This document shows positions 4,159 to 32,141 of a DNA stretch of 64,000 bases, piece after piece. The stretch covers positions 1,205,415 through 1,269,414 of the forward strand of contig JAYQJO010000001.1 of the NCBI GenBank assembly GCA_038142205.1, written 5' to 3'. Origin of the DNA: Pseudomonadota bacterium. Its GTDB lineage: Bacteria; Pseudomonadota; Gammaproteobacteria; Eutrophobiales; Eutrophobiaceae. The stretch's first letter is position 1. Each line of letters opens with the position of its first letter. The notes under the pieces are model-generated. The model saw only the letters and a program-made list of their open reading frames with translations. It did not search any database and had not been told where the DNA came from. Made by a program: the position numbers and the translations under genes.

Positions 4159-4233
4159 CCTTATTTCCTGTTAGATTGTATTCATGTTTTTGGGCTTAAT
4201 AGAAAAAATTTTAAAATTTGAATATATTATTAA

Positions 4234-5530: not shown

Positions 5531-5532
5531 TA

Positions 5533-6477: not shown

Positions 6478-6490
6478 TGTTATATATCAA

Positions 6491-8328: not shown

Positions 8329-8403
8329 ATTCCTGTCCTTCTAATAGAATTTTGTGTGAGACCATTCTATATTCTCCTTAAATTATTTAATAACCAAAAA
8401 AAT

Positions 8404-8459
8404 GACCCAGCTAATCTAAATAATGGGGGCCCAAGTATTAAATGAGAGATTAGCGGGTC
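8404..8459 (-). promoter_or_regulatory. Imperfect 13-bp inverted repeat (gacccagctaatct ... agattagcgggtc) with a ~29-nt loop in the 200-bp tmoE-tmoF intercistronic gap; possible mRNA structure or processing site
   Basis: Inverted repeat read directly from the sequence, inside a same-strand operon gap. Confidence 0.3.
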
Positions 8460-8531
8460 AACATACTCTTCTACTGTGGAAGTATTGGAGTAAACTTTAT
8501 GGTTATTGAGTGCATCTGATTAATATTTTTT

Positions 8532-9521
8532 TTAAACGCCCAGGTTTTCTCTGGATTTTTCCAATGCAGCTTTAGCATTGTTAATTGCATTTTCACTGTC
8601 GGGTAATTCAGCGCAATATTTTTCAACAGCATTGATACCCAGTGGCATCCACTTATCCAACCAGGAGGTTAATACTGCTTTATTTTCTGAATTTTCTAAT
8701 GCCAAATCTACTAATGCTTTAGACCAGCGCATATGGCGTTCACTGTCTCGGCATTGGCTATCACATAACATACCCAACAAAGTATCTGAATTATGACGAC
8801 CTGCCTCACCCAATTGATGTAAGACTGCCGCTTCAACGGCCGGTTTAAGCACCAGGTTAATCGCACAAAAAGATTCTCCCCAATCCCAGGCGGTCATAGC
8901 TCTCTCTGTTAACTCACGAAATCCTTGCCAGGCTTCGTCATCTTCCCAATGCTTTCTTTCGTCTTGTCCAAACCCTGCATCAGGATGCGTTAAAGACAGT
9001 TCATATGTACGATAGGCCGTGTGTGTTAACCAACGATGCGAATCGGCTGCCTGAAATGTTGAACAATTCGTGATGGTACTTGCAGGCGCCATTTGTCCAA
9101 TGTAGGCCGAACTCATCTGTAAGGCATGAAAAACATAACGTGCAGGTGTGTACAATTTCGCAAGGGTTCCTACCCATTCACGATCAATCGCTTTGTCGTG
9201 TTCTCTGTCGTTGAATTGATCCAGCAAACTTTTGACATACGTTTCTTGACCATCCTGCATAATATTATAAGTACGATAAACAATAGCATCAGGATCTCTG
9301 AATGTATCCCAATCCTCATGTTGTAAAGGACTCTTATTACGATAATTTAAATACCACTGATTCATATGCAGATTAGTATCCATTTCCCAGGGTTTATCTG
9401 GGTTGTTCATACTGGTGTGCAAGCGAACAGAAGTAATATCATATTCACTGGGACGGCGACGATTCTTTGCCAGATGTGACCAGGTTTTTAATGGTTTTAA
9501 AACTTCAGGTGAATCACTCAT
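8532..9521 (-). CDS. tmoE: Toluene-4-monooxygenase-type hydroxylase beta subunit (TmoE/TouE-like)
   Basis: 329 aa diiron-monooxygenase beta-subunit-like sequence, placed after effector and ferredoxin genes in T4MO order. Confidence 0.8.
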   Translation of the reverse strand: MSDSPEVLKPLKTWSHLAKNRRRPSEYDITSVRLHTSMNNPDKPWEMDTNLHMNQWYLNYRNKSPLQHEDWDTFRDPDAIVYRTYNIMQDGQETYVKSLLDQFNDREHDKAIDREWVGTLAKLYTPARYVFHALQMSSAYIGQMAPASTITNCSTFQAADSHRWLTHTAYRTYELSLTHPDAGFGQDERKHWEDDEAWQGFRELTERAMTAWDWGESFCAINLVLKPAVEAAVLHQLGEAGRHNSDTLLGMLCDSQCRDSERHMRWSKALVDLALENSENKAVLTSWLDKWMPLGINAVEKYCAELPDSENAINNAKAALEKSRENLGV

Positions 9522-9575
9522 ACTAACCTCTTAACTTTTAATTTTTTAATATGTAGTTAACTACTATTGGTAGTT

Positions 9576-9878
9576 TTATAAATGTTTCTCGAAATAGAAC
9601 CTGACGTAGTCCTTGGTATTTTCTATCTTGCCAGCAAAGGAACTCAGATTGATTTCCAGTTCACGCATTTCAAAAGAGTGCCCAAGTATTTCTTCCATGG
9701 TTTCTTTGCGTAAGATACATTCATCTTCAACAGAGATACGTAGATAGGCCATTTTGTCATCGACGATAACTTCCTTACCCGGGTTATCTATCTCCATCGC
9801 TTCTGCGACAGCATCAGCTATTTCACCGGCTCTGACGACAGGCCCGACCATATTGTTTAATGATGCATCTTGGCTCAT
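9576..9878 (-). CDS. tmoD: Monooxygenase effector/coupling protein (TmoD, MmoB family)
   Basis: 100 aa, MmoB/DmpM-family size and sequence, in T4MO gene order. Confidence 0.8.
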   Translation of the reverse strand: MSQDASLNNMVGPVVRAGEIADAVAEAMEIDNPGKEVIVDDKMAYLRISVEDECILRKETMEEILGHSFEMRELEINLSSFAGKIENTKDYVRFYFEKHL

Positions 9879-9914
9879 TTATTTAATCCTCATTTTTTTG
9901 TTGTTTGATCGTTA

Positions 9915-10253
9915 TTAGGCTGGTGCAACGTAAGGTGTCACACCTTCTATATCCACCAAAACATCATCACCCTCAACCTTGATTGGATACTGAGACAATT
10001 TGCAATCAACCGGGTTAATTCCCTTACCATTCGAGCAATCAAACTGCCATAAATGTGCTCTGCAAGTCAGTTGTTTACCATCAAACTCACCTTCAACTAA
10101 AGGAATATCCTGATGTGGGCACATAGCCTGATACGCTTTAACATCACCGCCATCAATCACAGTGATCAATACTTCAGTATTGTCTGTTGTTTCGAAGACC
10201 TCCATTTCACCTTCCCAAACATCATCCAGGGTACATATTTTTTCAAATGCCAT
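9915..10253 (-). CDS. tmoC: Rieske ferredoxin of toluene monooxygenase (TmoC)
   Basis: 112 aa with CPHQ...CRAHLWQF Rieske motifs, in T4MO gene order. Confidence 0.85.
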   Translation of the reverse strand: MAFEKICTLDDVWEGEMEVFETTDNTEVLITVIDGGDVKAYQAMCPHQDIPLVEGEFDGKQLTCRAHLWQFDCSNGKGINPVDCKLSQYPIKVEGDDVLVDIEGVTPYVAPA

Positions 10254-10272
10254 GTTTTATCTCTTTTCCTTA

Positions 10273-10531
10273 TCATTCATCAGCAAAAATAATGTCGATT
10301 GTTTCAGTTGGCTCTAACCCTGAATCAGCGACCTTCATATCTCTCGGAAAGAAATCATCAGCACCTTGTTTCCTGACTCTTAATATCTTGTCAGGTTGTG
10401 GTGCAACTCTACGACCAATCGAAATGCGCTGCTGCTGCAGCAACTTCATCCATGGTGTTTTCTGTATCGACTGGCACAAGTTGAATCACAAAGTCATGTT
10501 CAAAATTTGAAAGTAATGGAAATGCAGCCAT
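10273..10531 (-). CDS. tmoB: Toluene-4-monooxygenase gamma subunit (TmoB), frameshifted by one base at A3 run 10426-10428
   Basis: Two frames together recapitulate TmoB: MAAFPLLSNFEHDFVIQLVPVDTENTMDEVAAAAAH in one frame, then ISIGRRVAPQPDKILRVRKQ...FPRDMKVADSGLEPTETIDIIF in the other. An AGGAGA ribosome-binding site precedes ATG at 10531. Confidence 0.75.
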
Positions 10532-10558
10532 CAGTGTCTCCTGTATATCTGTATTTAA

Positions 10559-12060
10559 TTAACCGGCTTTTTTATGCGCCATTTCTTTATAAATGTTTGC
10601 CCATTCCAAACCATAGGCATCATCACCAATCTCACCCGGCGCCAGACTCATGTACTTCAGCGCTCCACTGAGATCCATGGGTTCCATCATCCCCGCCAGG
10701 AAGCGATCGATAAAACTCAGATGATCCGCATAGCGTTCTGGTTCCTGTTCAAAACACCAGCGATCCGGTTCAGAACCAAAATGATATAAACGATCTTTAT
10801 ACTTGAGAGGATAATCTTTGACATTCCAGCCATTACCTGGTGAACCCACAATGGGTATATTCGACATATTGCATATTGCAGGTAGAGTTTCCGGCAAAGT
10901 AAGCTCAACTTTATCATTGACCAAGTTATCGATAATGACATCCCAACACTTGCCAAATGTATCGTTCCAACCAGGATATTTTTCTTCCAGCCATTCTCGT
11001 TCATCCGGGTTTACACCGGCACGAGGATTCCACCAAACCGTAGGGCGCCAATACCAAACACCCATATGCATACCATGGTGAGTTTCATCGAGATCTCGTA
11101 AAAACTGATCCCAATACCAGGGTTTATCCAGGCCAAGATCGAGAATACTGCGTTCAAACTGCCCGACTATCCATTCTTCCATAAACTCTTTAAAAGACTG
11201 GCTTCGATGTTCAAGGGGTGTGTAGTAGTCCATCATGGGTCCCGTCAACACAGAAAACAATTTCCATGAACGCCAAAAAGCAATATCTATCAATCTCTGG
11301 GCATCGGCTTTTTTACCTTTTTCCACCAACAACTTGACCATTGGGCCACCCTGCTGAGCGTGACGTGATTCATCGGTCTGTATACTTGAGATTAAACTTG
11401 AAAATGTATGGTCACCGGCCTCCGAAGCATCAGCGGCTAAGCCCAGAAACTGCATATTGGTAAAACCTGTTTCAAAAGCAAACGTCAGCATAATACCCAT
11501 ACTGATCGCATCGCGGCTATGAATGATATCTTCAAAAAAATGCCTGCCAGCCAAAGCTGCCCATTCATTAGTATGTAATGCTTTTTGTGCCCAATCCCAT
11601 TTTCTATCCAAATTGCAGTTGGCATGTGGAAAAAACAATTGAAGTTGAGCATGACGAGTTTCATCCATCATGCCAAACGTGGCCATGTTACGGTTACCCG
11701 GCGCCTTGGAAAACGCGCCATTCTACCTTCGCCAACAATTGCGCCATATTCAGCCAAAGCTAAAGCACCATAATGTGCTTGTAGAATACTGATCCAGCCT
11801 GGATCAGCACGATCAAGAAATTTATCACGCGCTAATGCCGCTTTTACTGAATAAGCACCCGCATCTTTTTCACGTTGGGTCTCAACGTATTCAGGATAAG
11901 TCACTTTGTAAGGCTCATCATAGGTTTCCCAATCCTCAATTGAAATTCCGCGATGACCTGACATTTCCTCAGGAAATAATTCATCCTCAGTGACATATTT
12001 CGGCGTCCAGTTGGTTGCCCTTAATAAATCATACCATTCTGTTCTTTCGATCATGGCCAT
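10559..12060 (-). CDS. tmoA: Toluene-4-monooxygenase hydroxylase alpha subunit (TmoA), split into track ORFs 11668..12060 and 10559..11686 by a one-base error in A4 run 11710-11713
   Basis: The N-terminal ORF (MAMIERTEWYDLLRATNWTPKYVTEDELFPE...GEGRMARF) and the C-terminal ORF (MATFGMMDETRHAQLQLFFPH...) are colinear with TmoA. Diiron ligand motifs E..H are present. The frames rejoin if observed cgttttcc is read as cgtttttcc. Confidence 0.85.
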
Positions 12061-12131
12061 GGTTGTTATCCTCTCATTACCTTTTTTAATTTTCTAACTA
12101 TGTAATTAATATTTTGACATTAACTGTCGAT

Positions 12132-12322
12132 TTACTTACCAAGTTCCTTGGCCGATTTTCCAGCGATACCAAAATGCGATTTTGGTACTTCATTTAAAAT
12201 GACTCGAATACTTTCCCTGGGTGCGCCCAAACTTTCCTCTATTGCATCAGTGATGCTTGCAATTAAGTTTGCTTTTTCTCATCGTCTCTGCCTTCCATGA
12301 TGGTGATATTTGCTATGGGCAT
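12132..12322 (-). CDS. 4-oxalocrotonate tautomerase (DmpI/XylH family, ~63 aa), frameshifted at 12265-12266; not in the ORF track
   Basis: Reverse strand reads MPIANITIMEGRDDEKKQT then, in the other frame, LIASITDAIEESLGAPRESIRVILNEVPKSHFGIAGKSAKELGK. The N-terminal Pro1 after Met and the overall pattern match 4-OT. Confidence 0.7.
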
Positions 12323-12349
12323 ATTTTCAATCTCGTATATATAATTTAA

Positions 12350-13416
12350 TTAAATATTTTTAAATAACGGGCTTTTCGGTTTTTCATCTTTCGAGGCATT
12401 AGTATAGAAATGCTCCATGAATAAATGCTTTTCAAACAGACGTCCTTGCATCAAGGTCGTTATACAAGCATCTATCATTGGGGGTGGCCCACACATGTAG
12501 GCTTTATTGCCTTCAAACTTTCCATCATAAATAGAATTGGCAACTTCATGCACCATGCCTCGTTCACCTTGCCAGTCACTGTCTTCCGGTTCTTCTGATA
12601 AAGCGGGTATATATCTGAAATTTTCATGTTCTTCTGCTAATGCTTCGAACACTTCCCGGTAATACAACTCCTGTTGATTTCTTGCACCATAAATCAAAGT
12701 GATCTCTCTTTGCTCACCTTTTTCAAACTGATCCAGAATCATCGATTTTGGACTGGACAGACCTGATCCTCCTGCCAAAAATAACATCGGCTCAGGTGCA
12801 GAGTTACGCACAAAGAAACGACCATAAGGTCCTGAAAAATTTAATTCATCACCCACTTTTAATTGTTCATGGATATACGTTGTACCTGCACCACCCTGTA
12901 CCAGTGAAATATTCAGTTCGACAATTGAATTCTCAGAAGGAGAATTAGCAATAGAAAATGCACGAGCTGGTCCTGCAATTCCTGGAATTTCCAGATTAAT
13001 ATAATGACCGGCTTGAAATTCAATGGAGTCATTTTCTATCTCGAGAAAAATACCTTTGATTCTTGATTTAAATCGGTGATCTCAATCACCTTCGCTTTAA
13101 AATCTCTTACCTGATGTGATTCCGCATCAGGGTCTTCTTCGACGTCTGCTTCAATCACCAAGTCAGACGTTGGTGTGGCACAGCACGCCAAACATTTACC
13201 TTCACCTTTTTCCATATCCATCAAGGCAAATGGCGAAGCCTCGCCATGTTCAATATCACCTTCAAGCACATCGACTTTACAAGTGGCACATAAACCATGG
13301 CCACATGCATACGGTAGATAAATTCCAGCTCTTAATGAAGCATCAAGAATGGTTTGACCTTCTTCGACCTCAATAATCTCGCCCAAAGGTTCAATTTCAA
13401 CCTGATAAGTCAACAT
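12350..13416 (-). CDS. dmpP: Phenol hydroxylase reductase component (DmpP-like; 2Fe-2S ferredoxin plus FNR domains), frameshifted at A5 run 13046-13050
   Basis: N-terminal ORF 13036..13416 (ferredoxin domain CGHGLCATCKV) and C-terminal ORF 12350..12856 (GPYGRFFVR, AGGSGLSSP, CGPPPM) are colinear with DmpP. The middle segment reads correctly in a third frame (IEFQAGHYINLEIPG...). Confidence 0.85.
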
Positions 13417-13776
13417 TTAATTTCCATAGCCTTTCACACCATTTAAATCAGGTGTAATAAATCTTAATAATGATTTATGTCCAAAACCGTTGTCTTTTAA
13501 ACTGGCGCTTGTATCTGGTGTGAAATCTTCATCATCAAGAATCCAGTTGACGTTATCCCACTTTACTTTTTCATATTCTGGATGAGCCGAAAAAATACTC
13601 GGGATCACTTCCTCCAGCAAAGCACCAAAAGGCATCTCTGGTGGTAATGGAAAGGCTAATGCTGCAGTAAATAGATTGTGATTATCCCAATGGATATAGA
13701 CCAACTGATTTCCATGAAAATTTTCTACAGCATCTTTGTTAATATCGACGTAATCGCCTAAGGGGTTAATTGCCAT
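13417..13776 (-). CDS. dmpO: Phenol hydroxylase component P4 (DmpO, gamma subunit)
   Basis: 119 aa with VENFHG, PLPPEMPFG, HPEYEKVKWD motifs as recalled from DmpO. Confidence 0.85.
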   Translation of the reverse strand: MAINPLGDYVDINKDAVENFHGNQLVYIHWDNHNLFTAALAFPLPPEMPFGALLEEVIPSIFSAHPEYEKVKWDNVNWILDDEDFTPDTSASLKDNGFGHKSLLRFITPDLNGVKGYGN

Positions 13777-13788
13777 TATTTTATTCTC

Positions 13789-15318
13789 CTAGCCTGTAGC
13801 CACGTCGCCTTGTTTATCTTCACCCTTCCATTCCTGCCAGCGTTTGTGATCTGGTGAACCGACATATTCCAGATTATCTTCACCATCATTTAGATGGTAA
13901 TAATTCAGGACATCTGACAATTCAGCACCGCCACAATTACCCTGGAATATCTGATGAACTGGCAACCATGATTGAGTATATTTTTCTGGTTCATTCTCAA
14001 ACACATCTTTACAGCCATCAGAACAAGTGTGATATCGATCGCCCTTGTACATTGAAACGCGACGACTGATCTTCATTGGGTCAGACATGACTTCTGTAAA
14101 GAACATCGGTATCTGACAGGTCTGGCAAAGCTGCGGAAGACCCTTAACATAGTGTCGTTCGCCGGCTTTTTCCATCTCGCGCCATTGTTCAAAACGTGGA
14201 CGATAATACTGATCGAAGGTATTTGGATATTTTTCTGATAGCCAATCCATTTTCTTATCATCTGGCACCCAGGTATGGAATGCAGCTGCATGAGTGAAAT
14301 TATACAAATCACTCCAGGTCTGATGACTTAAATGTTCTGACTCAGCCGTAGCCAATTCATGATGTTTAGGCATACGTAAACCATAACGAGACAAGTCATT
14401 AAACAGAGCACCCATGTTTTCGACAAAATAGACTTGCCAGGCTTCGCCCCATGACATAGGAGAGTTGGGCAACATGTAATCCTGCATAGCAGAGATCAAT
14501 GCCAGTAAGCGATAGGCGCGCCAGAAATGTTTATCAATGTAACCCTGGATGATGGGCAGATTGTCTTCATGCTGTTCAACCATGAATTTTATAATCTCAA
14601 GACCTAATGTCATATGACGGGCTTCGTCAGACTGTGCTGAAAATCCAAAGGTCACCGTTGCCATATCACCGTTATAAGCCGCACCTGACATAAAAGGCAC
14701 GAACAACAGATTGGTCAATACATATTCAAATGAAAATGAAACCGAGGTAATAAACTCAAACGGTCCTGCTGTCATTGCATCTTCAAAATAGGATTTGGGT
14801 ACAGATAGATACCAGACACGGTCAAACTGATGAAACGCATCATGCATACCATTAAAGTGTTTATTGTAATGACTTAAGGTATGTAGTTGTGTCTGGCAAT
14901 GACGTAGTTCATCGATGGCCTGCATCTGGCAGGCAACCCGAGTGCCTTCACCACGGAAATGTCGGCCCAGGTGTGCGTAATGGCGATGTGCACCATATTC
15001 CAGAGGCGTGACACCCTGGATAAACAGTTTCAGGGCATTGACATAACGGGCATCAGAAACATTCAAATGACCATTATTCTGTGCAAAGCTATCGATAATG
15101 GCATAGAGTTTTTTCTCTTTTTCTGCCTGATATTTCCAGTATGCATCCACTGTTAAACGAAATGGATCTTCCCAGCCAGACCAGTCTTTAATTTTTATGC
15201 CTTCAAACTTATCGTAAGGAAAAACTTTATCCATCGGCTGATAAGTCGTGTCCCAACCCATACCACGGGTGAGAACTTCATAGCGTTTACGCATATTTAA
15301 TTTTTTCTTTGCTGCCAT
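13789..15318 (-). CDS. dmpN: Phenol hydroxylase component P3 (DmpN, diiron hydroxylase alpha subunit)
   Basis: 509 aa with diiron ExxH motifs (AIDELRH, SDEARH) and overall DmpN colinearity. Confidence 0.9.
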   Translation of the reverse strand: MAAKKKLNMRKRYEVLTRGMGWDTTYQPMDKVFPYDKFEGIKIKDWSGWEDPFRLTVDAYWKYQAEKEKKLYAIIDSFAQNNGHLNVSDARYVNALKLFIQGVTPLEYGAHRHYAHLGRHFRGEGTRVACQMQAIDELRHCQTQLHTLSHYNKHFNGMHDAFHQFDRVWYLSVPKSYFEDAMTAGPFEFITSVSFSFEYVLTNLLFVPFMSGAAYNGDMATVTFGFSAQSDEARHMTLGLEIIKFMVEQHEDNLPIIQGYIDKHFWRAYRLLALISAMQDYMLPNSPMSWGEAWQVYFVENMGALFNDLSRYGLRMPKHHELATAESEHLSHQTWSDLYNFTHAAAFHTWVPDDKKMDWLSEKYPNTFDQYYRPRFEQWREMEKAGERHYVKGLPQLCQTCQIPMFFTEVMSDPMKISRRVSMYKGDRYHTCSDGCKDVFENEPEKYTQSWLPVHQIFQGNCGGAELSDVLNYYHLNDGEDNLEYVGSPDHKRWQEWKGEDKQGDVATG

Positions 15319-15341
15319 ATTAATTCTCCAATATTGTCTGA

Positions 15342-15614
15342 TCAGCTAAGCCAGCTTAAAGCAAAATAATCATCGTCTTCATCGATATTGCCACTCAAGG
15401 AAACCAGATTAAGTTGTAATTCCATCGGATCCCAATCCTGCCCTTTAAATTCAGACACACTGTCGCGATTCACCACCAATCTCCCGGGAGATTCTATACG
15501 CACCATGCCCGGTTGGTAGTCTATCGTTGCATCTTGATTATCCTGTTCAATCGCCTCAATAATTGGTCGAGCATCTTCATTATCTTGTAAAATTAGAAAA
15601 ACATTGTCAGTCAT
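15342..15614 (-). CDS. dmpM: Phenol hydroxylase component P2 (DmpM, regulatory/effector protein, MmoB family)
   Basis: 90 aa acidic MmoB-like protein between the P1 and P3 genes. Confidence 0.85.
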   Translation of the reverse strand: MTDNVFLILQDNEDARPIIEAIEQDNQDATIDYQPGMVRIESPGRLVVNRDSVSEFKGQDWDPMELQLNLVSLSGNIDEDDDYFALSWLS

Positions 15615-15625
15615 GCCATTCCCCT

Positions 15626-16624
15626 TTATATATTGAGTCCCTGTTTAGACAGGCGCTCCAGCAATTGTTGTTTAACTTCATTCACAGCGACATCGCCATC
15701 ACCTGCAAAAGCAGCCTGGCCTATCGGCATTAAAGCTTCCGTCAGGCGGTCAGCCCATTTAGTTGTCCATTGTGTAAGTAAAGCAGCATTTTCTGGTGAC
15801 TCGTTTGCTGTGACTTTGATTAAGGCATTGGTCCAACGTACTGTTTCTGCATACCAGTCCGACATAAATTCAGTGAGCATGGCGAAGGTAGAACCACCTT
15901 CACGAGTTAATTCGTCTACAAAACGTTCGAACATAAGTGGATAGATCAGTCCATCCATAACAACATTTTGCGCCACCATAATTTCGAACCAGTCATCTAA
16001 AACAAACGTGTCCTCAACAGCATGTCGTAATTCTTGCCAGATATCTTCGTTCAACCAGGCTTCTTTGGCCGATTCAAGTGAAGTGGTTTCATTGCCATCA
16101 ACCATCAAGCCAATGCGACTGATATACTGCGCCAGTCCCAAACGATCAATTGCATTGAACATTGTCACCTGAGTAATAGCCGTGCCATAACCAAAATCGG
16201 TGATCGCGCAATTATTCATATTCGCGCCCCATTCAACATGACGTAGCGGAACAAGAAAATCGCGTACTTTTTGTTTGACTTCGTGAGATATTGATTCCAT
16301 CGTGTCACGTTTTTCTACGAAGTTATAATTACTTTCAGCTACTTCCTGTTGTTTTGAGCGAGCAATCGTGTAAGCACCATAATAAAACTGACGTGGATCC
16401 TTAAAGTCATACCAGTTCTTCATGACGATTGCAGTGCGACTTTCATCATAAACTTCATGTTCGGGATCCCAGAGAGGACGATAATGAAAATTAGTTGTCG
16501 GTTGAATACCAATAGTGGCTTCCTGATATCGAGAAGCAGGTTTGCCTTCGCCGATATGTCGTGCAACTTGATCGTAGGTTTCTCGAATCGGTTCTATTGT
16601 TTTTGCTGAAATTTCCAGACTCAT
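15626..16624 (-). CDS. dmpL: Phenol hydroxylase component P1 (DmpL, beta subunit)
   Basis: 332 aa beta-subunit-like sequence in dmp gene order. Confidence 0.85.
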   Translation of the reverse strand: MSLEISAKTIEPIRETYDQVARHIGEGKPASRYQEATIGIQPTTNFHYRPLWDPEHEVYDESRTAIVMKNWYDFKDPRQFYYGAYTIARSKQQEVAESNYNFVEKRDTMESISHEVKQKVRDFLVPLRHVEWGANMNNCAITDFGYGTAITQVTMFNAIDRLGLAQYISRIGLMVDGNETTSLESAKEAWLNEDIWQELRHAVEDTFVLDDWFEIMVAQNVVMDGLIYPLMFERFVDELTREGGSTFAMLTEFMSDWYAETVRWTNALIKVTANESPENAALLTQWTTKWADRLTEALMPIGQAAFAGDGDVAVNEVKQQLLERLSKQGLNI

Positions 16625-16667
16625 ATATCTATTTCCCGTATTTTAATTCTGTTATTAAAGCTTGCTA

Positions 16668-16949
16668 TTACTCATCGTCCCCAGTTAAACCATTACGCCA
16701 TTTGAGTTGGTCATAATCGACTTGTGCACATTGTTTAGTGGTTAATTCTTTGGCTTCATTACGCTTACAAAATTTTCTGAAATGTTCAAACGGCATCATT
16801 AATTCAACAAATAGCGTCGGATCCCCGATAGAAAAATTAAATTCTACAAATTTTTTATCCCGCACACCGGTGACTCTGACGTAGCGTTGATTATGGTTAT
16901 CGAATGAATCTCTCGTTGACACAATGTTTTTATTTATTGTATATACCAT
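16668..16949 (-). CDS. dmpK: Phenol hydroxylase component P0 (DmpK, assembly protein)
   Basis: 93 aa as the first gene of the dmp operon. A GGAAAG ribosome-binding site precedes the ATG. Confidence 0.8.
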   Translation of the reverse strand: MVYTINKNIVSTRDSFDNHNQRYVRVTGVRDKKFVEFNFSIGDPTLFVELMMPFEHFRKFCKRNEAKELTTKQCAQVDYDQLKWRNGLTGDDE

Positions 16950-16988
16950 TAAATAAGTACTTTCCTACCTTAAAATTATTATTAATTA

Positions 16989-17004
16989 GCAGTTACTGTA
17001 CCAA
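16989..17004 (-). promoter_or_regulatory. Candidate sigma-54 (-24/-12) promoter for the dmp/tmo supra-operon: TGGTAC-N5-CTGC on the minus strand
   Basis: Reverse complement ttggtacagtaactgc has GG and GC elements at the correct 10-nt spacing, ~40 nt upstream of the dmpK ATG. It has one mismatch in each element versus TGGCAC-N5-TTGC. Confidence 0.35.
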
Positions 17005-17247
17005 CTATAATTAACATATTAAAATCAATAATATAACTTAAATTTAATTTAAAACTTTGGTGCTAGTTTTTATCATATGATAAATTTTATAAATACATTT
17101 AATCGGAAATTTTAACGTCAATGCCTTATTATTTCTGCCTGTTAAAATTAATAAAATTTAATTTCATGGAATAAACCTAACTACTTATATGATTACAAAA
17201 GAAAAAATAGTTTGGTATGACTACAGTATGAATAAATAAATCTAATC

Positions 17248-17262
17248 TGGCATCAAGTTTGC
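17248..17262 (+). promoter_or_regulatory. Sigma-54 (-24/-12) promoter TGGCAT-N5-TTGC upstream of the alcohol dehydrogenase gene
   Basis: tggcatcaagtttgc matches the consensus TGGCAC-N5-TTGC with correct spacing, about 60 nt upstream of ATG 17324. Confidence 0.55.
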
Positions 17263-17323
17263 GATTAATAATTGCACTTGTCCTATACAACAATAAAACA
17301 ATGATTTAATAAGGGGAGAATCC

Positions 17324-18385
17324 ATGAAAGCAGCAGTTTATTTTAATCCTGAAGATATTCATTGTACCGATATCGATAGTCCGAAAATTAGTCAAGCACA
17401 TGAAGTACTGGTCAAGGTCATTGGCACTTCTATTTGTGGATCAGACCTGCATCTCTATAGCGGAGCCATGGATCCCATAATGGAAAAAGGACAATCACAA
17501 ACCGGCCATGAGTTGATTGGTGAAGTTGTCGAAACCGGAAACAACGTTGGTAATTTTAAAACAGGCGACAGAATTTCCATGGCTTATTCCTGTTCCTGTG
17601 GTGAATGTTATATGTGTGAGGTAGGACAAACGGCACACTGTGAAACCACTCAAAAAGCCGTGTATGGATTTGGTGTCCCCTTTGGAAATATGAATGGCAC
17701 ACATGCTGAATTTTTGACCTTACCTTATGCCGATGCACACGCCATAAAAGTTCCTGATTCTATTCCTGATCAGGCTGCTTTAACACTGTCTTGTAATCTA
17801 CCCTCCGCTATCATTGCTAATAATCTGGCTGATATTCAACCGGGCGAAAATGTTGCATTGATTGGTTGTGGGCCAACCGGTTTAATGAGCCTGGAAATCG
17901 CATTACAAAAAGCTGAAGGTAATGTAGTCGCCATTGATAAACTCGCCTATCGTTTAAAAGTCGCCGAAGAAAAAGGCGCTAAAGTCATTAATAGTAGTGA
18001 GGAAGGTTGGCACGAATTGGCTATGCAACATTGTCAGGGTCGTGGTTTCGATAAGGTCATTGAAGTTGTTGGTTATCCAGAGACCCTGCAAATGGCACTG
18101 GATCTAATTCGACCCGGTGGAACCATAGCAGCAATCGGTGTGTTCTGTGGTCAGGAATTTAATCTGGTACTTGCTGATGTGTTTCTAAGAGACATCAGCC
18201 TGCATATGAATGGTTTTGCTAATGTGCAGCCTTATATGTGGGAAAGTTTAAGATTAATGGAACGTGGCGTAATTAATCCCGCTTCTCTATTCACTCATGA
18301 ATATAAACTGGATGATGTTGATAAGGCTTTTAAAACTTTTTATGAAAAATCAGATAACGTCTTAAAAGTTATGCTAAGAGCATAG
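17324..18385 (+). CDS. Zinc-dependent alcohol dehydrogenase (MDR superfamily)
   Basis: 353 aa with GTSICGSDLH, structural-Zn Cys cluster (CSCGECYMCE) and GCGPTGL Rossmann motif. Good ribosome-binding site AAGGGGAG. Confidence 0.8.
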   Translation: MKAAVYFNPEDIHCTDIDSPKISQAHEVLVKVIGTSICGSDLHLYSGAMDPIMEKGQSQTGHELIGEVVETGNNVGNFKTGDRISMAYSCSCGECYMCEVGQTAHCETTQKAVYGFGVPFGNMNGTHAEFLTLPYADAHAIKVPDSIPDQAALTLSCNLPSAIIANNLADIQPGENVALIGCGPTGLMSLEIALQKAEGNVVAIDKLAYRLKVAEEKGAKVINSSEEGWHELAMQHCQGRGFDKVIEVVGYPETLQMALDLIRPGGTIAAIGVFCGQEFNLVLADVFLRDISLHMNGFANVQPYMWESLRLMERGVINPASLFTHEYKLDDVDKAFKTFYEKSDNVLKVMLRA

Positions 18386-18397
18386 AATCTGAATTTT

Positions 18398-20096
18398 TCA
18401 ACCTTGTTCAATATCCAGTTTCTTTAAACGATAGGCCAGTTGCGGTCGGGTGATATTTAATGTCCTCGCAGCTGCGCTTAAATTACCTTTGGCATTTTTT
18501 ATTGCTGTTTTTAGAATTTCTGTCTCAAGCTTTTCAAATCCAGGAAAATTATTATTATTCTGTAGCATAGTTTCTGCATATTCATGTAAATCAATAGAGC
18601 TAGCATTATTTTCAACCAAACCTTTCATTTCTCCCATTTTACGTCTGTCTATGCTTCCATCAAATGTACTAAAAATAAGGTTCGACAATTTAATTTTAGT
18701 TCCTTTTTTAGTCAGAATAATTCCTCGCTCAATAACATTTTCAAACTCTCTGACATTACCTGGCCACGAATAGGCTGCCAGTGCCTCTATCGCATCATCC
18801 TCAATACCTGGAATTACTTTATTGTATTTAATTCCTATTTTATTAATGAAATGATCAATTAATATCGGAATATCTTCTTTATGGTCTCGTAATGGCGGAA
18901 TGATGACCGGATAAACATTTAATCGAAAAAAAAGGTCTTTCCTAAAGCGTTCTTCTTTAACAGCCGTTTCCAGATCATTGTTGGTTGCGGCGACGATGCG
19001 CACATCAATACGCCTTGACCGTGTATCACCCACACGTTCTATTTCATGATTTTGTAAAACCCTTAATAGTTTCGCTTGTGCACTTTCTGAAAGCTCTGCG
19101 ATTTCATCAAGAAACAAAGTCCCCCCATGGGCACGTTCGAATTTACCAGGCCGAGATTTTTGCGCGCCGGTAAATGCCCCCTTCTCCACACCAAATAATT
19201 CAGACTCTATTAATTCTTCTGGAATCGCAGCGCAATTTATCGCAACAAAAGGCGCTTTTTTTCGCTCACTTGTGTCATGAATTTTACGTGCAAACAAATC
19301 TTTCCCCACTCCGGTTTCACCTATAAGTAGTATGGTGACCTGACTCTCTGCGACGTGATCCAACATTTTATGAACATCTTGTAATTTTTTAGAATCACCT
19401 ATGATATTGCTGATTTCATATCCCTGTTCTACATTTAATCGTAATTTTTCGAATTGATTTTGTAGTTGCAACATTTGATCTGCAAAATGTTCTGGTTTGA
19501 AGTATCGAATATGTCCGATATCAGAACCCCAATCTTCAATCGGCTTGCCAATGATCCGGCATGTTTTAACTCCCGTCCCGGCACATTCAATTTCCTTAAA
19601 AGGATCATATCGTCCATGAATGCACTTGCATAACCACTGGCATAACCTATTTGTAACCAACAAACGGGATCCTGACTAATACCAAATAGGTCGAAGTACA
19701 TTTTGGTTTCAAAAGAATTATTCCATAAATACTCCGCATAAAATTCTCCCTTAGCCACGTTCATTTCTAATTTTATTTCAGTGACTTCAACGCCGGTTTC
19801 AAATTGATGAAGTAGAGGGCCAATCTTAATGCATCAGTATCAGAGGCTTCTGGTCGTAATTCATGTGCTAGAACGGCATCCTTTTCTCCGGCAGCATAAC
19901 CCAACCGTGTGATTAATCCTCGTGTCCGATCTAATCCAAGATTTTCGATTAATTCTTTGCGTAAAGAAGCCATTGCCTGAATATTCAGCAATATCATCCG
20001 TTCACTCCCGAGGGTGATATCGCCTTCTCCTCCTGGCAGCGTAAATATTGAGGAGACTTCTTTAGACTCAGACTTAGTTGGATTTAATTTTTTCAT
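18398..20096 (-). CDS. XylR/DmpR-family sigma-54-dependent transcriptional activator (N-terminal aromatic-effector-sensing domain, AAA+ sigma-54 interaction domain, C-terminal HTH), split into three track ORFs by two one-base errors (CC at 19614-19615; TT at 19826-19827)
   Basis: ORF 19773..20096 resembles the XylR N-terminal domain (GEGDITLGSERMILLNIQAMASLR). ORF 19435..19764 continues it (GEFYAEYLW...DPVCWLQIGYASGYASAFM). ORF 18398..19663 carries the Cys-rich linker, GETGVGKDLFARKIH, GAFTGA and C-terminal HTH. Confidence 0.8.
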
Positions 20097-20290
20097 ATAA
20101 GCTAGTCATCACTATTCTGATAGAGAAATTTTCTTAATTTTTTATGATATGATGAATTAATTATATGGTGAATTATTTAAAAGTAAACCGAATATAGAGC
20201 TGGATTCTAGGTAGTTCCGGATGATTCTTCAGGAATTTTATCTAGATTGTGAGAATTTTGATTAAATTTTCAGCTGATTAGAACAGGAAA

Positions 20291-22743: not shown

Positions 22744-25114
22744 ATGAATAACTATGTAATTTGGTTTGAAAAACTGGGAATGAACGATGTCGAAATCGTT
22801 GGTGGTAAAAATGCCTCTTTAGGTGAAATGATTTCTAATCTTGCCGACTCTGGTGTCATGGTACCAGGAGGATATGCAACAACAGCTGATGCATATCGTG
22901 AATTTCTTAAACACGAAGGACTTTCAGATCGTATTAATAAAAACCTTTCTGATCTTGATGTCGACAATATTGAACACCTTACCGCCGCCGGTAAACAAAT
23001 CAGACAATGGATCATAGATGCCCCATTTCCGCCACAACTTGAAAAAGAGATCAGTGAAGGTTATGTAGAATTGGAAAAGAGAGCAGGTAAAAATGTATCT
23101 GTTGCTGTTCGCTCTTCAGCAACAGCAGAAGATCTCCCTGATGCCTCTTTTGCCGGTCAACAGGAAACCTTTCTCAATATTCGCGGCATTGATGACATTT
23201 TGTTTAGAGTAAAAGAAGTGTTTGCCTCACTTTATAATGATCGCGCTATCGCTTATCGCGTTCATCAGGGTTTCGAACATGAAGTGGTTGCATTATCCGC
23301 AGGCATACAACAAATGGTACGCAGCGATTTGGGCTCAAGTGGTGTCATGTTTACTTTGGATACTGAATCAGGTTTTGATGATGTTGTTTTTATTACCTCA
23401 TCATTTGGTCTGGGTGAGTGCGTTGTTCAAGGTTCAGTTAATCCTGATGAATTCTACGCCTACAAACCTGCACTTGTAGCAGGTAAGCAATCTATATTAC
23501 TGAGAAATATATATGGGTAGTAAGGCAGAGAAAATGATCTTTGATGAGTCAGGAGATAACCCCACGATAATTATCAAGACTTCAGAGTCTGAACGTACAA
23601 ACTTCTCCCTCAATGATGAAGACATAGAAGAGTTGGCACGCTATGCCTTAACAATAGAAAAACATTACGGCCGTCCGATGGATATCGAATGGGGTAAAGA
23701 TGGCGAAAATGGCAAACTCTATATCTTGCAAGCCAGACCTGAAACCGTCAAAAGCCGCACAGCAGGCAAAAGCATAGAACGTTATATCATGAATGAACGC
23801 TCTGATATTTTAGTAACAGGAAGAAGTATTGGCCAACGCATAGGTAGCGGACCTGTAAAAATTATTTCAGATATAAAATATATGGATGAAGTAAAAGAGG
23901 GAGATGTGCTGGTAACGGATATGACTGATCCTGATTGGGAACCCATCATGAAACGCGCTTCGGCAATTGTCACCAATCGTGGTGGTCGTACCTGTCATGC
24001 AGCAATTATTGCCAGAGAACTCGGTATCCCTGCTGTAGTTGGAACGTCCAACGGAACAGAAAAACTTGCTGATATCGATGAAGTTACCGTTTCATGTTCT
24101 GAAGGCGATACAGGTTTTATCTATGAAGGCATATTGCCGTTTGAATTAAAAAATATTCAACTCGATTCTATGCCGGAAATTGATTTAAAGGTGATGATGA
24201 ATGTGGGTAATCCCGATCGCGCTTTTGACTTTGCCTCTTATCCAAACCACGGCGTCGGTTTGGCACGACTCGAATTTATTATTAACAGAATGATCGGCGT
24301 ACATCCCAAAGCCTTGATCAACATTGATACTATGCCAAACAACATCAAGACAACTATTCAAAAAAGAATTTCAGGTTATCGTACACCCGTTGATTTTTTT
24401 ATCGAAAAATTAACAGAAGGTATTGCAACATTAGGGGCTGCCTTTGCACCTAACCCTGTCATTGTTCGCATGTCTGATTTTAAATCTAATGAATATTACA
24501 ATCTCATTGGCGGAGATCAGTTTGAACCAAAAGAAGAAAATCCGATGCTTGGCTTTCGTGGTGCGTCTCGATATATTTCAGAATCATTCAGAGACTGTTT
24601 CGAAATGGAATGTAAGGCGTTTGTGAAAGTCCGTAATGATATGGGACTCAGCAATGTTCAATTAATGGTACCATTTGTACGAACGGTAGACGAAGCAAAA
24701 CAAGTCACCGAACTGCTAAAAGATAATGGTCTGGAACGAGGTAAAGATGGCCTTAAGGTGATTATGATGTGTGAATTACCTTCAAATGCATTATTAGCAA
24801 AAGATTTCCTTGAATATTTTGATGGGTTCTCTATAGGTTCCAATGATTTAACACAATTAACATTGGGATTGGATCGAGACTCAGGTCTGGTTGCAGATAA
24901 ATTTGATGAAAGAAATCCAGCAGTAAAAGCAATGCTACAGATGTCTATCAAAGCCTGTTTGGAAGCTAAAAAATATATTGGCATTTGTGGTCAAGGTCCA
25001 TCGGATCATCCTGATCTGGCGCAATGGTTAATGGAACAAGGCATCGAAAGTGTTTCTCTTAATCCAGACACGGTCATTGAAACATGGTTATCATTAGCAG
25101 GGGAATCTATTTAA
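22744..25114 (+). CDS. ppsA: Phosphoenolpyruvate synthase (PpsA), frameshifted in an A/AT low-complexity stretch at 23495-23510
   Basis: ORFs 22744..23520 and 23513..25114 are colinear with PpsA: ATP-grasp N-domain, phosphohistidine domain ...[24 protein letters not shown], and PEP-utilizing C domain. The junction ...[13 protein letters not shown] maps to the linker. Confidence 0.85.
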
Positions 25115-25818: not shown

Positions 25819-26883
25819 TCAGGTTTTAATATCCGTTTTATCTTTGTTTGATAAATGCTTATTTAATTCGAATTCTTCAGCTAGTAATTGGTATGATCGT
25901 TTTCGATCTTCAAAATCATAACAGACATTAACCACTGTTATTTCATCTGCATCATATTCTTCAGCAAGTTTATCCATTTTGTTACGACATTCTTCCGCAG
26001 TACCAATGATCATTGAATTCAACGTTTCATCATAATAAGCCTGATCTTCAATCGATAATGTTTGTTTAAGATTTAAGCAATCTTCAGGTGGCAACAGTGG
26101 AATACGTACACCATGTCGAAACGCCTGTACTTTCCAGTATGTGTGAGTGCTGGCAATACGAATAGCCTCATCCCTATCCTCAGCACATATCACTGCAACT
26201 GCTAGCATTACTTTTGATTTCTGTTGATCTGTCATTGGTTTAAATGCATTTCGATAAGCATCAATAATCCCTGTTGGTCTATCATGTGTGCCAATAAATA
26301 AAGCCAACGCAAAACCAGCACCAACTTGTCCGGCAAATTCAGCGCTACCTGCACCAGAGCCCAGCAACCATAATTCAGGAACGACTTCTGCTTCGGGGAT
26401 TGTTTTTAAATTATAATAAGGATGGTCCGTAGGTAAACTATCATGTAAAAAACCACTCAAGTCAGATACTTGTTGCACATACAACTCAGCACTATTTGGA
26501 TAGTTTGGATAGGCTAATGCTGATGCAGCAATTGAATTTCCACCGGGAGCCCTGCCCACACCAATATCTATTCGATTTGGATGCAAGCTTGATAATAGAC
26601 GAAATGTCTCAGCAACTTTATAAGGACTATAATGAGTTAACATAACACCACCGCTACCGACACGTAGGTTTTTTGTAGCGCCAGCAACTTCAGCAATCAT
26701 AATCTCAGGACAAGAACAAGCGTAGCCCTCAGTATCGTGGTGTTCTGCAATCCAGTACCGATAATAACCCAGGGCATCACATTGTTTTGCTAATTCTATC
26801 GTCTGGGCTGGCGCTAAATGAGAAGGTAAATCGTTATGAATGGGTATTTGATCTAAAACATTGAACTTATATGAACGGCTCAT
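25819..26883 (-). CDS. Luciferase-like monooxygenase (LLM-class flavin-dependent oxidoreductase)
   Basis: 354 aa with TIM-barrel LLM signature (YWIAEHH, GVGRAPGG). Confidence 0.7.
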   Translation of the reverse strand: MSRSYKFNVLDQIPIHNDLPSHLAPAQTIELAKQCDALGYYRYWIAEHHDTEGYACSCPEIMIAEVAGATKNLRVGSGGVMLTHYSPYKVAETFRLLSSLHPNRIDIGVGRAPGGNSIAASALAYPNYPNSAELYVQQVSDLSGFLHDSLPTDHPYYNLKTIPEAEVVPELWLLGSGAGSAEFAGQVGAGFALALFIGTHDRPTGIIDAYRNAFKPMTDQQKSKVMLAVAVICAEDRDEAIRIASTHTYWKVQAFRHGVRIPLLPPEDCLNLKQTLSIEDQAYYDETLNSMIIGTAEECRNKMDKLAEEYDADEITVVNVCYDFEDRKRSYQLLAEEFELNKHLSNKDKTDIKT

Positions 26884-27036
26884 ATGATATTTAAAAGAAA
26901 AAAAATATTACGTTGTTATTAAATGATTTAAATATATCAACCAATATAAGTGAGGTTATCAAAAGGTTTTTACACCTTCACTCGAATACATATTAAAACA
27001 TCGGCATGATGGTATACATCATGCCGATAATAGTGA

Positions 27037-27956
27037 TTACGTTACAACCTGTAGGAATCTATCATTAAGCTCTCTGCTATGATAAAAAATTGCCTGACCA
27101 AGATGATCGGGAGTCCATGTTAAAACGGGACTATCTGGATATCGATAACTGTCTTCACAGAAAACTTCATTACGATTACCAGAAGGATCAAAGAAGTAAA
27201 TCGTTTGTCCCCGAGTTAAGCCATGTCGTGTTGGTCCAATATCCAGTGGGATATCTTTCATCGAAATGATGTCTGCCGCACGTAATACATTTTCCCATGT
27301 GTTCAACATAAATGAAGCATGATGCATTTTATTTTTTCTTCATGACGGATAAATGCAACGTCATGGGCCTTATGTGAACAACTTAGAAATGCAGCAATCT
27401 GTAATTCACCATCGACAACCTGTTCAGCCACATCAAATTCCAGAGCTTCTGTAAAAAGTTTAACGGTACCATCTATATCATCACCATAGAGTAAACAATG
27501 GTCAAAACGCACTGCTTGCATTCCTTGCAAACCCTCTGGCCAGGGTCCAGGATTTGTTGTTGGTAATCCATTGCCATACACCTCTTTTTCTGCATACAGT
27601 TCAAAAGTATGACCCGTTGGCGAATCAAATCGGACACGTTCACCACAGTGGTTTAATTCACCAGCAGCAATACGTTCAACATTACAACCAAATTTCTTAA
27701 TGTTATCCTCAAGTCGCAGTAACGATGCTTCGTTGTCTACCTTGAACGCCATGTGATCCATGCCCGGGCTATCGTTCTTTTGTAATACCACCGAAAACCA
27801 ATCATGTTCATCCCAGCATTTCAAATAAACACGCCCTTGATCGTCTCTATCCGTTTCAATTAAACCCATATTCTCAGAATAATGTTTTACCGATTCATCT
27901 AAATCCAACACATTAATCATTACATGTCCTGGTCTCATTACGCCTGTTATTGCCAT
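27037..27956 (-). CDS. Catechol 2,3-dioxygenase (extradiol, XylE/DmpB type), frameshifted in the T4/T6 runs at 27327-27338
   Basis: ORFs 27303..27956 and 27037..27327 are colinear with XylE: GVMRPGHV...DDQGRVYLK...AHDVAFI then [22 protein letters not shown]...[22 protein letters not shown]. The junction lies in poly-A on the coding strand. Confidence 0.85.
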
Positions 27957-27997
27957 TATTATTTACCTCTTTTAAACATAATTTATTATCAAGTGTA

Positions 27998-28339
27998 CTA
28001 ACTATTTTTGTTTGTGTTTAATGATTTTACATGTGTTTCACTAAACTCAGATTTCATCTTTCCTAATACGTTTAATTTGATATCCGATCTGGGAAACACC
28101 CTGCATGCTAGTACAATATCTTCATTTTGTTCTTCTTCACTAACATGATTACGACTCATGATTCCAGTTTGATACTGCCCGGATACAATCCTTATTTTAC
28201 ACACGCCACAACCACCATTACGACAACCTACCGGAATACCCTTTCGCCCTAATCTGAGCATGCCTTTAAGCAAATGTTCCTGCTCATAACATTCAAACAT
28301 TTCATTACTATCGTTGATGGATATATTAAATTTTTTCAC
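27998..28339 (-). CDS. Plant-type [2Fe-2S] ferredoxin of the XylT/DmpQ type (catechol 2,3-dioxygenase reactivation)
   Basis: 113 aa with CRNGGCGVCK...C cluster, immediately upstream of the C23O gene as in xylTE/dmpQB. Confidence 0.75.
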   Translation of the reverse strand: MKKFNISINDSNEMFECYEQEHLLKGMLRLGRKGIPVGCRNGGCGVCKIRIVSGQYQTGIMSRNHVSEEEQNEDIVLACRVFPRSDIKLNVLGKMKSEFSETHVKSLNTNKNS

Positions 28340-29906: not shown

Positions 29907-29982
29907 CTTTGTTTCTCCTCAACATTATTGTTGGGTATTAATTACATTTAAAAATAGCTTAATTTAATACTGTTACTTGACC

Positions 29983-31994: not shown

Positions 31995-32100
31995 TTTTTG
32001 ACTCCCCTCAAATCAAATAATAATAAGAATGATAAAAAAAATTATTTATTTTTAACAATTTCAATCAGTTAAATTTTGTTTATCATTTAAAAACTTAAAA

Positions 32101-32141
32101 ATAACACCAAATAACACCAAAATAACACCAAATAACAACAG
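32101..32141. repeat. Tandem direct repeat, 3 perfect plus 1 degenerate copies of ATAACACCAA(A), upstream of the DUF1302 operon
   Basis: ataacaccaa ataacaccaa aataacaccaa ataacaacag, read directly. Confidence 0.7.

Follow-up and report, generated by a model that had tools for sequence, protein, structure and literature searches.

This analysis concerns the transcriptional control of genes for aromatic-hydrocarbon oxidation in a 64,000-nt stretch of contig JAYQJO010000001.1 (assembly GCA_038142205.1, positions 1,205,415 to 1,269,414), hereafter called the window. At its centre is a 374-bp spacer between two genes that point away from each other: dmpK (16949-16668) on one side and a gene for a zinc-dependent medium-chain alcohol dehydrogenase (ADH) on the other. 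The spacer is rich in AT (22.7% GC, compared with 37.2% for the window), and no plausible small open reading frame (ORF) was found within it. The dmpK gene leads a row of about 9.6 kb that ends with the genes of a TmoABCDEF-type four-component monooxygenase, whereas the ADH gene meets, tail to tail, the gene of a sigma-54 activator of the XylR/DmpR type. An earlier interpretation of this DNA, made from its letters alone (the sequence-only reading), had proposed that the spacer is a sigma-54 control region. The elements that bear on this proposal are listed in Table 1.

Table 1. Positions of the features discussed, numbered from the first letter of the window (UAS, upstream activating sequence; PWM, position weight matrix; IHF, integration host factor)
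Feature	Position	Strand	Sequence	Basis or remark
Probable target operon: dmpKLMNOP, 4-oxalocrotonate-tautomerase-like gene, tmoABCDEF	7342-16949	-		Pfam, NCBIfam
Spacer	16950-17323			
PdmpK, predicted sigma-54 -24/-12 promoter	17003-16988	-	TGGTACagtaaCTGCt	motif, shuffles, conservation
IHF-like block	17023-17035	+	AATCAATAATATA	one mismatch to WATCAANNNNTTR; conserved
UAS-1, proposed shared activator-binding site, perfect 16-bp palindrome	17069-17084	.	TTTATCATATGATAAA	UAS PWM score 16.8 (rank 4); conservation; likeness to Pu and AphR sites
UAS-2 (weak, putative) with conserved block	17181-17206	.	cTACTTATATGATTACAAAAGAAAAA	tentative assignment
Padh, predicted sigma-54 -24/-12 promoter	17248-17263	+	TGGCATcaagtTTGCg	motif, shuffles, conservation
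Zn-dependent medium-chain ADH gene, 353 aa	17324-18385	+		Pfam ADH_N, ADH_zinc_N
XylR/DmpR-type sigma-54 activator gene	18398-20096	-		domains, alignment with XylR; intact form 566 aa
UAS PWM match within the activator coding sequence	18843-18858	-	TTGATCATTTCATTAA	score 20.2 (rank 2); rejected as operator
Two adjacent UAS-like 16-mers upstream of the activator gene	20141-20172 (20172-20157 and 20156-20141)	-	TTCACCATATAATTAA and TTCATCATATCATAAA	UAS PWM scores 10.4 and 17.3 (20141-20156, rank 3)
Sigma-70-like activator promoter	20187-20160	-	TTTACT-16-TATAAT	10/12 match; TATAAT conserved in L005 and L007
Probable third target operon: BNR/YCF48-like, MMPL/RND transporter, DUF1302-like (frameshifted), DUF1329/LolA-like	28482-35874	-		
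Third predicted sigma-54 promoter	35944-35929	-	TGGCATacaaaGTGCt	motif, PWM, orthologous promoters
UAS pair of the third promoter	36007-36061 (36007-36022, centre -96.5; weak, 36046-36061, centre -135.5)	.	TTTATCATATCATTAA; GTCAACTTTTGATCAC	UAS PWM scores 20.6 (rank 1) and 5.3

The dmpK/ADH spacer and its sequence elements

Two predicted sigma-54 promoters face outwards from the spacer, Padh towards the ADH gene and PdmpK towards dmpK, and both lie where the sequence-only reading had placed them. Each combines hexamers resembling TGGCAC-N5-TTGC with GG and GC elements 10 bp apart, and each is correctly oriented upstream of a gene. The GG and GC of PdmpK fall at 17002-17001 and 16990-16989, with the -12 C (16989) 40 nt ahead of the dmpK ATG (16949), and the -12 C of Padh (17262) lies 62 nt ahead of the ADH ATG. 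Assuming throughout that transcription begins 12 nt downstream of the -12 C, the start sites would be at about 16977 and 17274, giving leaders of 28 and 50 nt, respectively. Across the whole window such motifs are at chance level: there are 45 matches to TGGCAC-N5-TTGC with two or fewer mismatches (45.7 expected), so that the two promoters are not outstanding, and 9 and 3 matches to a sigma-54 PWM equal or exceed the scores of the two sites, compared with 2.3 and 0.8 expected. Within the composition of the spacer, by contrast, they are rare. In 20,000 spacer shuffles an equally good site arose at a frequency of about 6e-4 for Padh and about 4e-4 for PdmpK, both together never arose, and the core TGG-N9-TGC appeared on both strands in 1e-4 of spacer shuffles. 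The sequence-only reading had also called the ADH promoter strong and the oxygenase promoter weaker. This ranking does not hold: Padh is better by mismatches (1 versus 2) and PdmpK by PWM score (14.2 versus 12.6). Since the two ways of scoring disagree on the order, sequence does not tell which promoter is stronger.

The centre of UAS-1 falls at -99.5 relative to PdmpK and at -197.5 relative to Padh, and its counterpart in the related loci L005 and L007 is TTTATCATATCATCAA. It is the sole exact match to TYATCAWWTGATRA in the 64 kb. The Pu region of plasmid pWW0 contains ccTTGATCAAATCgacagg and cGATTGATGATTTGCTCAAATac, and the Ps/Pr region contains TTAACCAATTGATTAA, a palindrome that the UAS-1 motif resembles; we take these sequences to be UASs bound by XylR. 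The reverse complement of cGATTGATGATTTGCTCAAATac (Pu UAS2), TTGAGCAAATCATCAA, agrees with the window palindrome at 11 of 16 positions and with the L005/L007 site at 13 of 16, and 12 of 16 positions are shared between the palindrome and the published AphR motif GCTTGATCATTTGATCATGC (PMC6449761). The 10-mer ATCATAT[CG]AT occurs three times in the window, each time between genes: at 17072 within the palindrome, at 20144, 46-59 nt upstream of the activator ATG, and at 36010. When the window was scanned with a 16-bp UAS PWM built from 11 sites, all from relatives, three promoter regions were among the top four matches (Table 1; the best score per shuffle averaged 14.7, with a maximum of 19.0). The match at 18843-18858 was rejected as an internal operator, as it encodes the conserved peptide LIDHFI and its DNA is not conserved in L005 or L007.

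Activators of this family normally use two palindromes whose centres are separated by 29-42 bp and which lie 100-200 bp upstream of the promoter (PMC6449761). The spacer follows this norm only in part, because the PWM scan revealed no partner for the palindrome at a distance of 29-42 bp. A degenerate site at 17181-17196 (PWM score 7.3), centred at 17188.5 or -85.5 of Padh and 112 bp from the palindrome, is our candidate for a weak second UAS. Between UAS-1 and the -24 element of PdmpK, at -46 to -58, lies an IHF-like block that is identical at 12 of 13 positions to AATCAATAATTTA of pWW0 Pu, presumably the IHF site of that promoter. No exact IHF consensus was found in any of the three promoter regions of the window, the spacer included, and nothing comparable to the block was found for Padh. 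There, A-tracts may stand in for an IHF site, as has been proposed for a promoter of Acinetobacter calcoaceticus PHEA-2, which likewise has an AT-rich tract without an IHF consensus (PMC3063778).

The arrangement of a monooxygenase gene on the minus strand, the ADH gene on the plus strand and the regulator gene on the minus strand recurs in L005, L007, L008, L208-L212, L022, L042, L006, L023, L028, L031 and L054. Regulators in L005, a JGI metagenome contig (83% identical), and in L007 and L008, contigs of metagenome-assembled genomes (MAGs) whose records are labelled Thiotrichaceae and Enterobacteriaceae (82-83%), are closest to the one in the window. Those of L006, L023, L028, L031 and L054 are 56-58% identical, and those of L022 and L042 47-48%. 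We aligned the spacers of three close lineages with regulators 82-83% identical, namely the window, L005/L008 and L007/L208-L211. Most of the spacer has diverged, and seven conserved islands remain. PdmpK forms one of them (AGCAG.TA.T.TACCAACTA), with the GG, the GC and their flanks invariant in all three lineages; Padh forms another (TGGCATCAAG[TC]TTGC, present in L005/L008, L007 and L208-L211). The others are the IHF-like block (AATCAATAA[TC]ATAA in the window, L005 and L007), the palindrome region (TTTTATCATAT[GC]AT[AC]AA), the block TATGATTA[CT]AAA[AG]GAAAA, invariant in the three lineages, a short TATGA between that block and Padh, and the ribosome-binding site of the ADH gene. Both motifs are thus locally improbable and conserved, in keeping with the proposed sigma-54 control region.

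Among the more distant loci, the spacers of L022 and L042 have diverged too far for an alignment, yet each carries one sigma-54-like site towards dmpK (TGGCATGGCTTATGCA and TGGTATGGAATATGCA) and one towards ADH (TGGCTCAATATTTGCT and TGGCTCACCTTTTGCT). In L006, L023, L028, L031 and L054 it is tmoA, not dmpK, that faces ADH, and these loci do not support Padh because none has a canonical sigma-54 site before its ADH gene. Towards tmoA they share a conserved TTGGCA[TC]GATT[TC][GC]TGTA with GT in place of GC at -12; GC is likewise missing from the -12 region of the mphK promoter mapped in A. calcoaceticus PHEA-2, TTGGCATA-N4-TTGTA (PMC3063778). Scanning metagenome contigs for the pattern TYTGGCATCAAGYTTGC gave 120 loci, which we regard as chance matches or unrelated sigma-54 promoters because none carried an ADH gene.

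The activator, its own promoter and a probable third target

The activator is the only enhancer-binding protein (EBP) encoded in the window, and the sequence-only reading was right to see a XylR/DmpR-type protein, which is here a full one, next to the ADH gene. Its intact orthologue matches the Pfam families XylR_N (2.8e-27), V4R (3.3e-09), Sigma54_activat (4.9e-71), AAA_lid_14 and HTH_8 (1.2e-10, residues 522-561). It thereby has the N-terminal A domain that senses effectors in this subfamily (XylR_N plus V4R), the central AAA+ domain for interaction with sigma-54 and the Fis-type helix-turn-helix at the C-terminus. The fragments encoded in the window match XylR_N and positions 20-88, 113-170 and 164-543 of the MobR model. 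The protein aligns end to end with XylR of pWW0, which also has 566 residues, at 44% identity, with the Walker A motif (GETGVGK) and GAFTGA visible in the alignment. A Cys/Glu/Cys/Cys pattern (PVCW, E-x2-C and C at +11) likewise aligns with XylR and presumably corresponds to the Zn site of MopR.

The activator gene has a sigma-70-like promoter of its own, and two adjacent UAS-like 16-mers overlap the -10 hexamer and the start region of this promoter. The sequence ATTCA[CT][CT]ATATAAT[TG]AATT[CT]A[TC]CATATCAT is conserved upstream of the regulator in L005 and L007, and comparable TTTATCATTTCATCAA sites occur ahead of the regulator gene in L006, L028, L031 and L054. By analogy with xylR, for which auto-repression at Pr is documented (PMC3469447), we propose that these 16-mers are operators for auto-repression. 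Neither these operator-like sites nor the third target promoter described below had been mentioned in the sequence-only reading.

The convergent layout of the ADH and activator genes, which that reading had pointed out, is real and conserved in other genomes: their stop codons are 12 nt apart in the window, and this distance varies between -23 and +26 nt among about 10 distinct loci with regulators down to 48% identical. The lack of divergence between activator and target operon, which had been presented as a departure from related systems, is not exceptional in the family, given that xylR lies about 30 kb away from Pu on pWW0. No terminator-like hairpin was found between the ADH and activator genes, and because the two genes converge, read-through from Padh would be antisense to the regulator. 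One speculative idea, which we think rather unlikely to hold, is that the tail-to-tail module provides a built-in negative feedback, in which a single palindromic enhancer fires two opposite promoters and antisense transcription from Padh damps synthesis of the activator in proportion to the output of the pathway. Such damping might work through polymerase collision or double-stranded RNA and would be additional to auto-repression through the operators.

The third predicted sigma-54 promoter is located 18.6 kb from the dmpK/ADH spacer, with a putative start site at about 35918 and a 44-nt leader to the TTG start of a BNR/YCF48-like gene. Its two UAS matches are 39 bp apart, the second being weak. 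In L006, L028, L031 and L054 an orthologous BNR-RND operon lies next to the regulator gene in divergent orientation and is preceded by the promoter TGGCA[CT]AATTAATGCG, and a ATCATATC motif is found at a comparable distance from the BNR promoter in L006, L028 and L054. A set comprising COG4447, COG1033, PF07044 and DUF1302 has been predicted to be regulated by AphR in Burkholderia sp. 383 (PMC6449761). An exact-sequence look-up of the BNR protein returned no contigs. Because the UAS motif is present at the activator promoter and at the third sigma-54 promoter as well as in the spacer, it looks like the activator serves a small regulon that includes the third promoter.

A proposed shared control region and the alternatives

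In our view the spacer probably works as an enhancer-dependent control region in both directions, with a single XylR/DmpR-type activator serving it. According to this model, the activator encoded tail to tail with the ADH gene would bind the palindrome, and probably also the weaker site 112 bp away, and would reach the promoters by looping of the intervening DNA. Upon sensing an effector, presumably aromatic, it would hydrolyse ATP and open the sigma-54 RNA polymerase complexes at both -24/-12 promoters. PdmpK, aided by bending at the IHF-like block, would then drive the dmpKLMNOP-tautomerase-tmoABCDEF operon, and Padh would drive transcription of the ADH gene. Through the two operator-like motif copies the activator most likely also shuts down its own sigma-70 promoter, and it probably also fires the third sigma-54 promoter ahead of the BNR/RND/DUF1302/DUF1329 envelope operon.

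Several observations weigh against this model. The sigma-54 PWM is our own approximation of the published consensus, and chance matches to it within coding regions of the window score like the two promoters. The UAS PWM yields false positives, because one of its best matches is non-conserved and falls within coding sequence, and the spacer has a single strong UAS where a pair would be the norm. The IHF-like block carries one mismatch and is inverted with respect to dmpK transcription. A further point is the state of the activator gene, which in the window consists of three ORFs in three frames (20096-19773, 19764-19435 and 19663-18398). The sequence-only reading had the span and the type of the gene right; in the window the gene is not one ORF, being interrupted twice.

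These interruptions raise the question of whether the activator is a genuine pseudogene, in which case the two sigma-54 promoters would be silent relics or would be served by another EBP encoded elsewhere. Two frameshifts are present in the window, and the public annotation of the same 2.66-Mb genome has the activator as pieces of 421 and 107 residues (an exact-sequence look-up of the 421-residue piece returned no contigs). A split in ppsA that is common to two assemblies further suggests that some frameshifts may be real. The breaks are 1-nt deletions, at about 19827 (AA for AAA) and about 19597 (A4 for A5), relative to L001. This independent assembly, a Logan contig from SRR11524960, is 99.87% identical to the window from 7330 to 28378 and carries an intact activator gene of 566 codons. 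We read the activator frameshifts as assembly error because L001 and all relatives have intact regulators. Apart from the two indels, the activator region differs from L001 by 2 substitutions in 1.7 kb, which fits indel error in long reads, and the 21 kb of overlap contain 14 substitutions and 11 indel events, most of the latter being changes in the length of mono-nucleotide runs. At least nine genes between 7330 and 37560, the activator among them, are split by indels of 1-2 nt relative to L001 or orthologues, including tmoA, tmoB, the tautomerase gene, dmpP, the catechol 2,3-dioxygenase gene, DUF1302 and DUF1329 (indel sites at 8260, 8424, 10423, 11709, 12272, 13064, 19597, 19827, 27331, about 31300 and about 36899). 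The at least eight genes broken in the same manner as the activator are intact in the near-identical assembly and in all relatives, with the splits of DUF1302 and DUF1329 lying outside the overlap with L001. At position 25590 it is the window that is intact and L001 that is broken. This pattern fits that of unpolished long-read assemblies, and we are fairly confident that the frameshifts in the window are assembly indel errors. A pseudogene is thereby an unlikely explanation, and because the assembly carries so many gene-breaking indels, the genome annotation needs repair before any claim of pseudogenes is made.

The sequence elements themselves could also be read differently. The -24/-12 matches might be coincidental, with dmpK and the ADH gene transcribed from sigma-70 promoters in the AT-rich spacer. 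The window-wide background lends this idea some weight, since chance matches equal the scores of the two sites, and sigma-70-like hexamers do occur in the spacer, for example at 17048-17076. We nevertheless judge it highly improbable: the sites are locally improbable, their GG/GC cores and flanks are conserved amid a diverged spacer, analogous pairs exist in diverged loci, a dedicated sigma-54 activator is encoded next to them, and shuffles yield more sigma-70-like matches than the region itself (14.0 versus 10). Alternatively, the ATCATAT[GC]AT palindrome might be the operator of another protein, such as a repressor like AphS or MphX or an iron-responsive factor, with the EBP binding elsewhere in the spacer. 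The presence of one strong copy instead of the usual pair would suit such an operator, and by our own inspection the AT-rich motif loosely resembles permuted Fur-box hexamers, a Fur-box reading that proved weaker than the UAS reading. Additional repressors are also known from phenol systems, namely AphS (PMC6449761) and MphX (PMC3063778). The motif does not, however, fit the AphS/BphS consensus AAATmTCGAkATTT (PMC6449761). It recurs near positions -97 to -100 relative to two predicted sigma-54 promoters and at the regulator promoter, here and in relatives, and 11-13 of its 16 positions agree with XylR UAS regions defined by experiment and with the AphR motif. We thus give the assignment to another protein little credence. 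With the shared control region retained as the preferred model, the interpretation offered by the sequence-only reading is largely right, the corrections being to the broken regulator ORF, the promoter ranking and the type of ADH. The analysis extends that interpretation by a defined UAS with IHF-like elements, by the putative auto-regulatory sites and by the third promoter. What emerges is a map, open to testing, of how aromatic-hydrocarbon oxidation may be regulated in a marine gammaproteobacterium of uncultured type and low GC, with three predicted sigma-54 promoters, a 16-bp enhancer motif and an auto-regulatory site.

The dehydrogenase, related systems and neighbouring genes

The ADH retains its catalytic and structural zinc ligands, with C38, H62, E63 and C92/C95/C98/C106 invariant in an alignment of orthologues. 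The sequence-only reading had suggested a benzyl-alcohol-type enzyme. This type is not supported, because identity to the benzyl alcohol dehydrogenase XylB of pWW0 is low (23%, E 7e-14) and the closest structures are 4cpd (E 5e-57), 5yln and then threonine dehydrogenases. No benzyl alcohol dehydrogenase was found among the 60 best matches in PDB. The entry 4cpd is the ADH of Thermus sp. ATN1. In NCBIfam the protein is nearest to tdh models, at scores far below their cut-off, and it is 29% identical to XylW of pWW0. The other part of the suggestion fared better, as common regulation of the ADH and oxygenase genes is very probable. Among 64 loci with ADH orthologues (at least 53% identity), TmoA/DmpN is encoded in 33, a XylR-type regulator in 25 (within about 6 kb), and one or both in 48, and the ADH gene either diverges from the monooxygenase genes, immediately precedes tmoA or immediately follows the tmo genes. 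A sigma-54-like site, defined as one scoring above the 95th percentile of a null from the same locus, was present within 250 nt upstream in 21 of 65 ADH-orthologue loci, compared with 5% expected. These neighbourhoods show that the ADH is a widespread, conserved accessory of TmoA/DmpN-type monooxygenase clusters, often under predicted sigma-54 control. A looser arrangement is seen in L009, L011, L013-L015, L018, L020, L027, L029, L059, L065 and L067, mostly labelled Cycloclasticus, where a XylR-type regulator gene again converges on the ADH gene, at a distance of 1.4-3.4 kb that is occupied by other genes; upstream sigma-54-like sites are also present at several ADH genes of this group.

The system closely fits the XylR/DmpR/AphR paradigm and can be regarded as a further example of it; a specialist would not be surprised, because the proposed mechanism follows the XylR/DmpR scheme so closely. 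The nearest parallel is XylR of plasmid pWW0 from Pseudomonas putida mt-2, with an activator of the same length and domain order. Pu likewise combines a -24/-12 promoter (TGGCATggcggTTGCT) with an imperfectly palindromic 16-bp UAS and an IHF-type block between UAS and promoter, and its operon begins with the threonine-dehydrogenase-like Zn-ADH XylW. As is proposed here, a single regulator serves several promoters and represses its own synthesis. The window differs from pWW0 in that the sigma-54 promoters are back to back and apparently share an enhancer region, the strong UAS is single and nearer to the promoter (-100), the regulator is tail to tail with a target gene whereas xylR is divergent from xylS, and the targets are di-iron monooxygenases instead of a xylene monooxygenase. 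DmpR/Po of Pseudomonas sp. CF600 and MopR or MphR/PmphK of Acinetobacter resemble the present case in having an activator of the same subfamily, a dmpKLMNOP-type phenol hydroxylase, a sigma-54 promoter and an AT-rich region. There, dmpR, mopR and mphR are divergent from the operon, whereas here that place is taken by an ADH gene that has a predicted sigma-54 promoter to itself, with the convergent regulator gene on its far side.

Divergent pairs of sigma-54 promoters that share enhancers are found in other EBP subfamilies responding to other signals, as in hyc/hyp (FhlA) and zraP/zraSR (ZraR) of E. coli and nifHDK/nifJ (NifA) of Klebsiella, which likewise have one enhancer region between back-to-back -24/-12 promoters. 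No published example of such a pair in the XylR/DmpR family could be confirmed. Regulons of the AphR/TbuT type, as predicted for Betaproteobacteria by Suvorova and Gelfand (2019, PMC6449761), combine phenol hydroxylase and tmoABCDEF with COG4447 (BNR), COG1033 (RND), PF07044 (DUF1329) and DUF1302; these last four correspond exactly to the genes that follow the third promoter in the window. Unlike in the window, their sites are mostly paired three DNA turns apart, and their regulators are usually divergent from the targets (PMC6449761). Their hosts are Betaproteobacteria, whereas the present host is a marine gammaproteobacterium of low GC content whose relatives include MAGs labelled Thiotrichaceae and Cycloclasticus.

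Within the dmpK operon, where tmoA, tmoB, the tautomerase gene and dmpP are frameshifted in the window, the PWM found no further sigma-54 site between the genes. Other genes of aromatic catabolism flank the region at 532-7321 and 25819-28339. Among their products are a Rieske dioxygenase (alpha and beta subunits) and a catechol 2,3-dioxygenase, each accompanied by a ferredoxin, as well as a meta-cleavage hydrolase and a luciferase-like monooxygenase. At the dmpO/dmpP junction (13413-13464), five substitutions between the window and L001 are crowded into 52 nt, compared with nine in the rest of the 21-kb overlap, a cluster that could reflect local recombination or misassembly. The ppsA gene for phosphoenolpyruvate synthase (22744-25114) is divided into ORFs of 258 and 533 aa that overlap by 8 nt (23513-23520) in a (TA)n run (aatatatatgggtag), and its frameshift may be genuine because the same split is seen in the window and in L001. 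The sole Rfam match in the whole window is a tRNA gene at 43378-43450.

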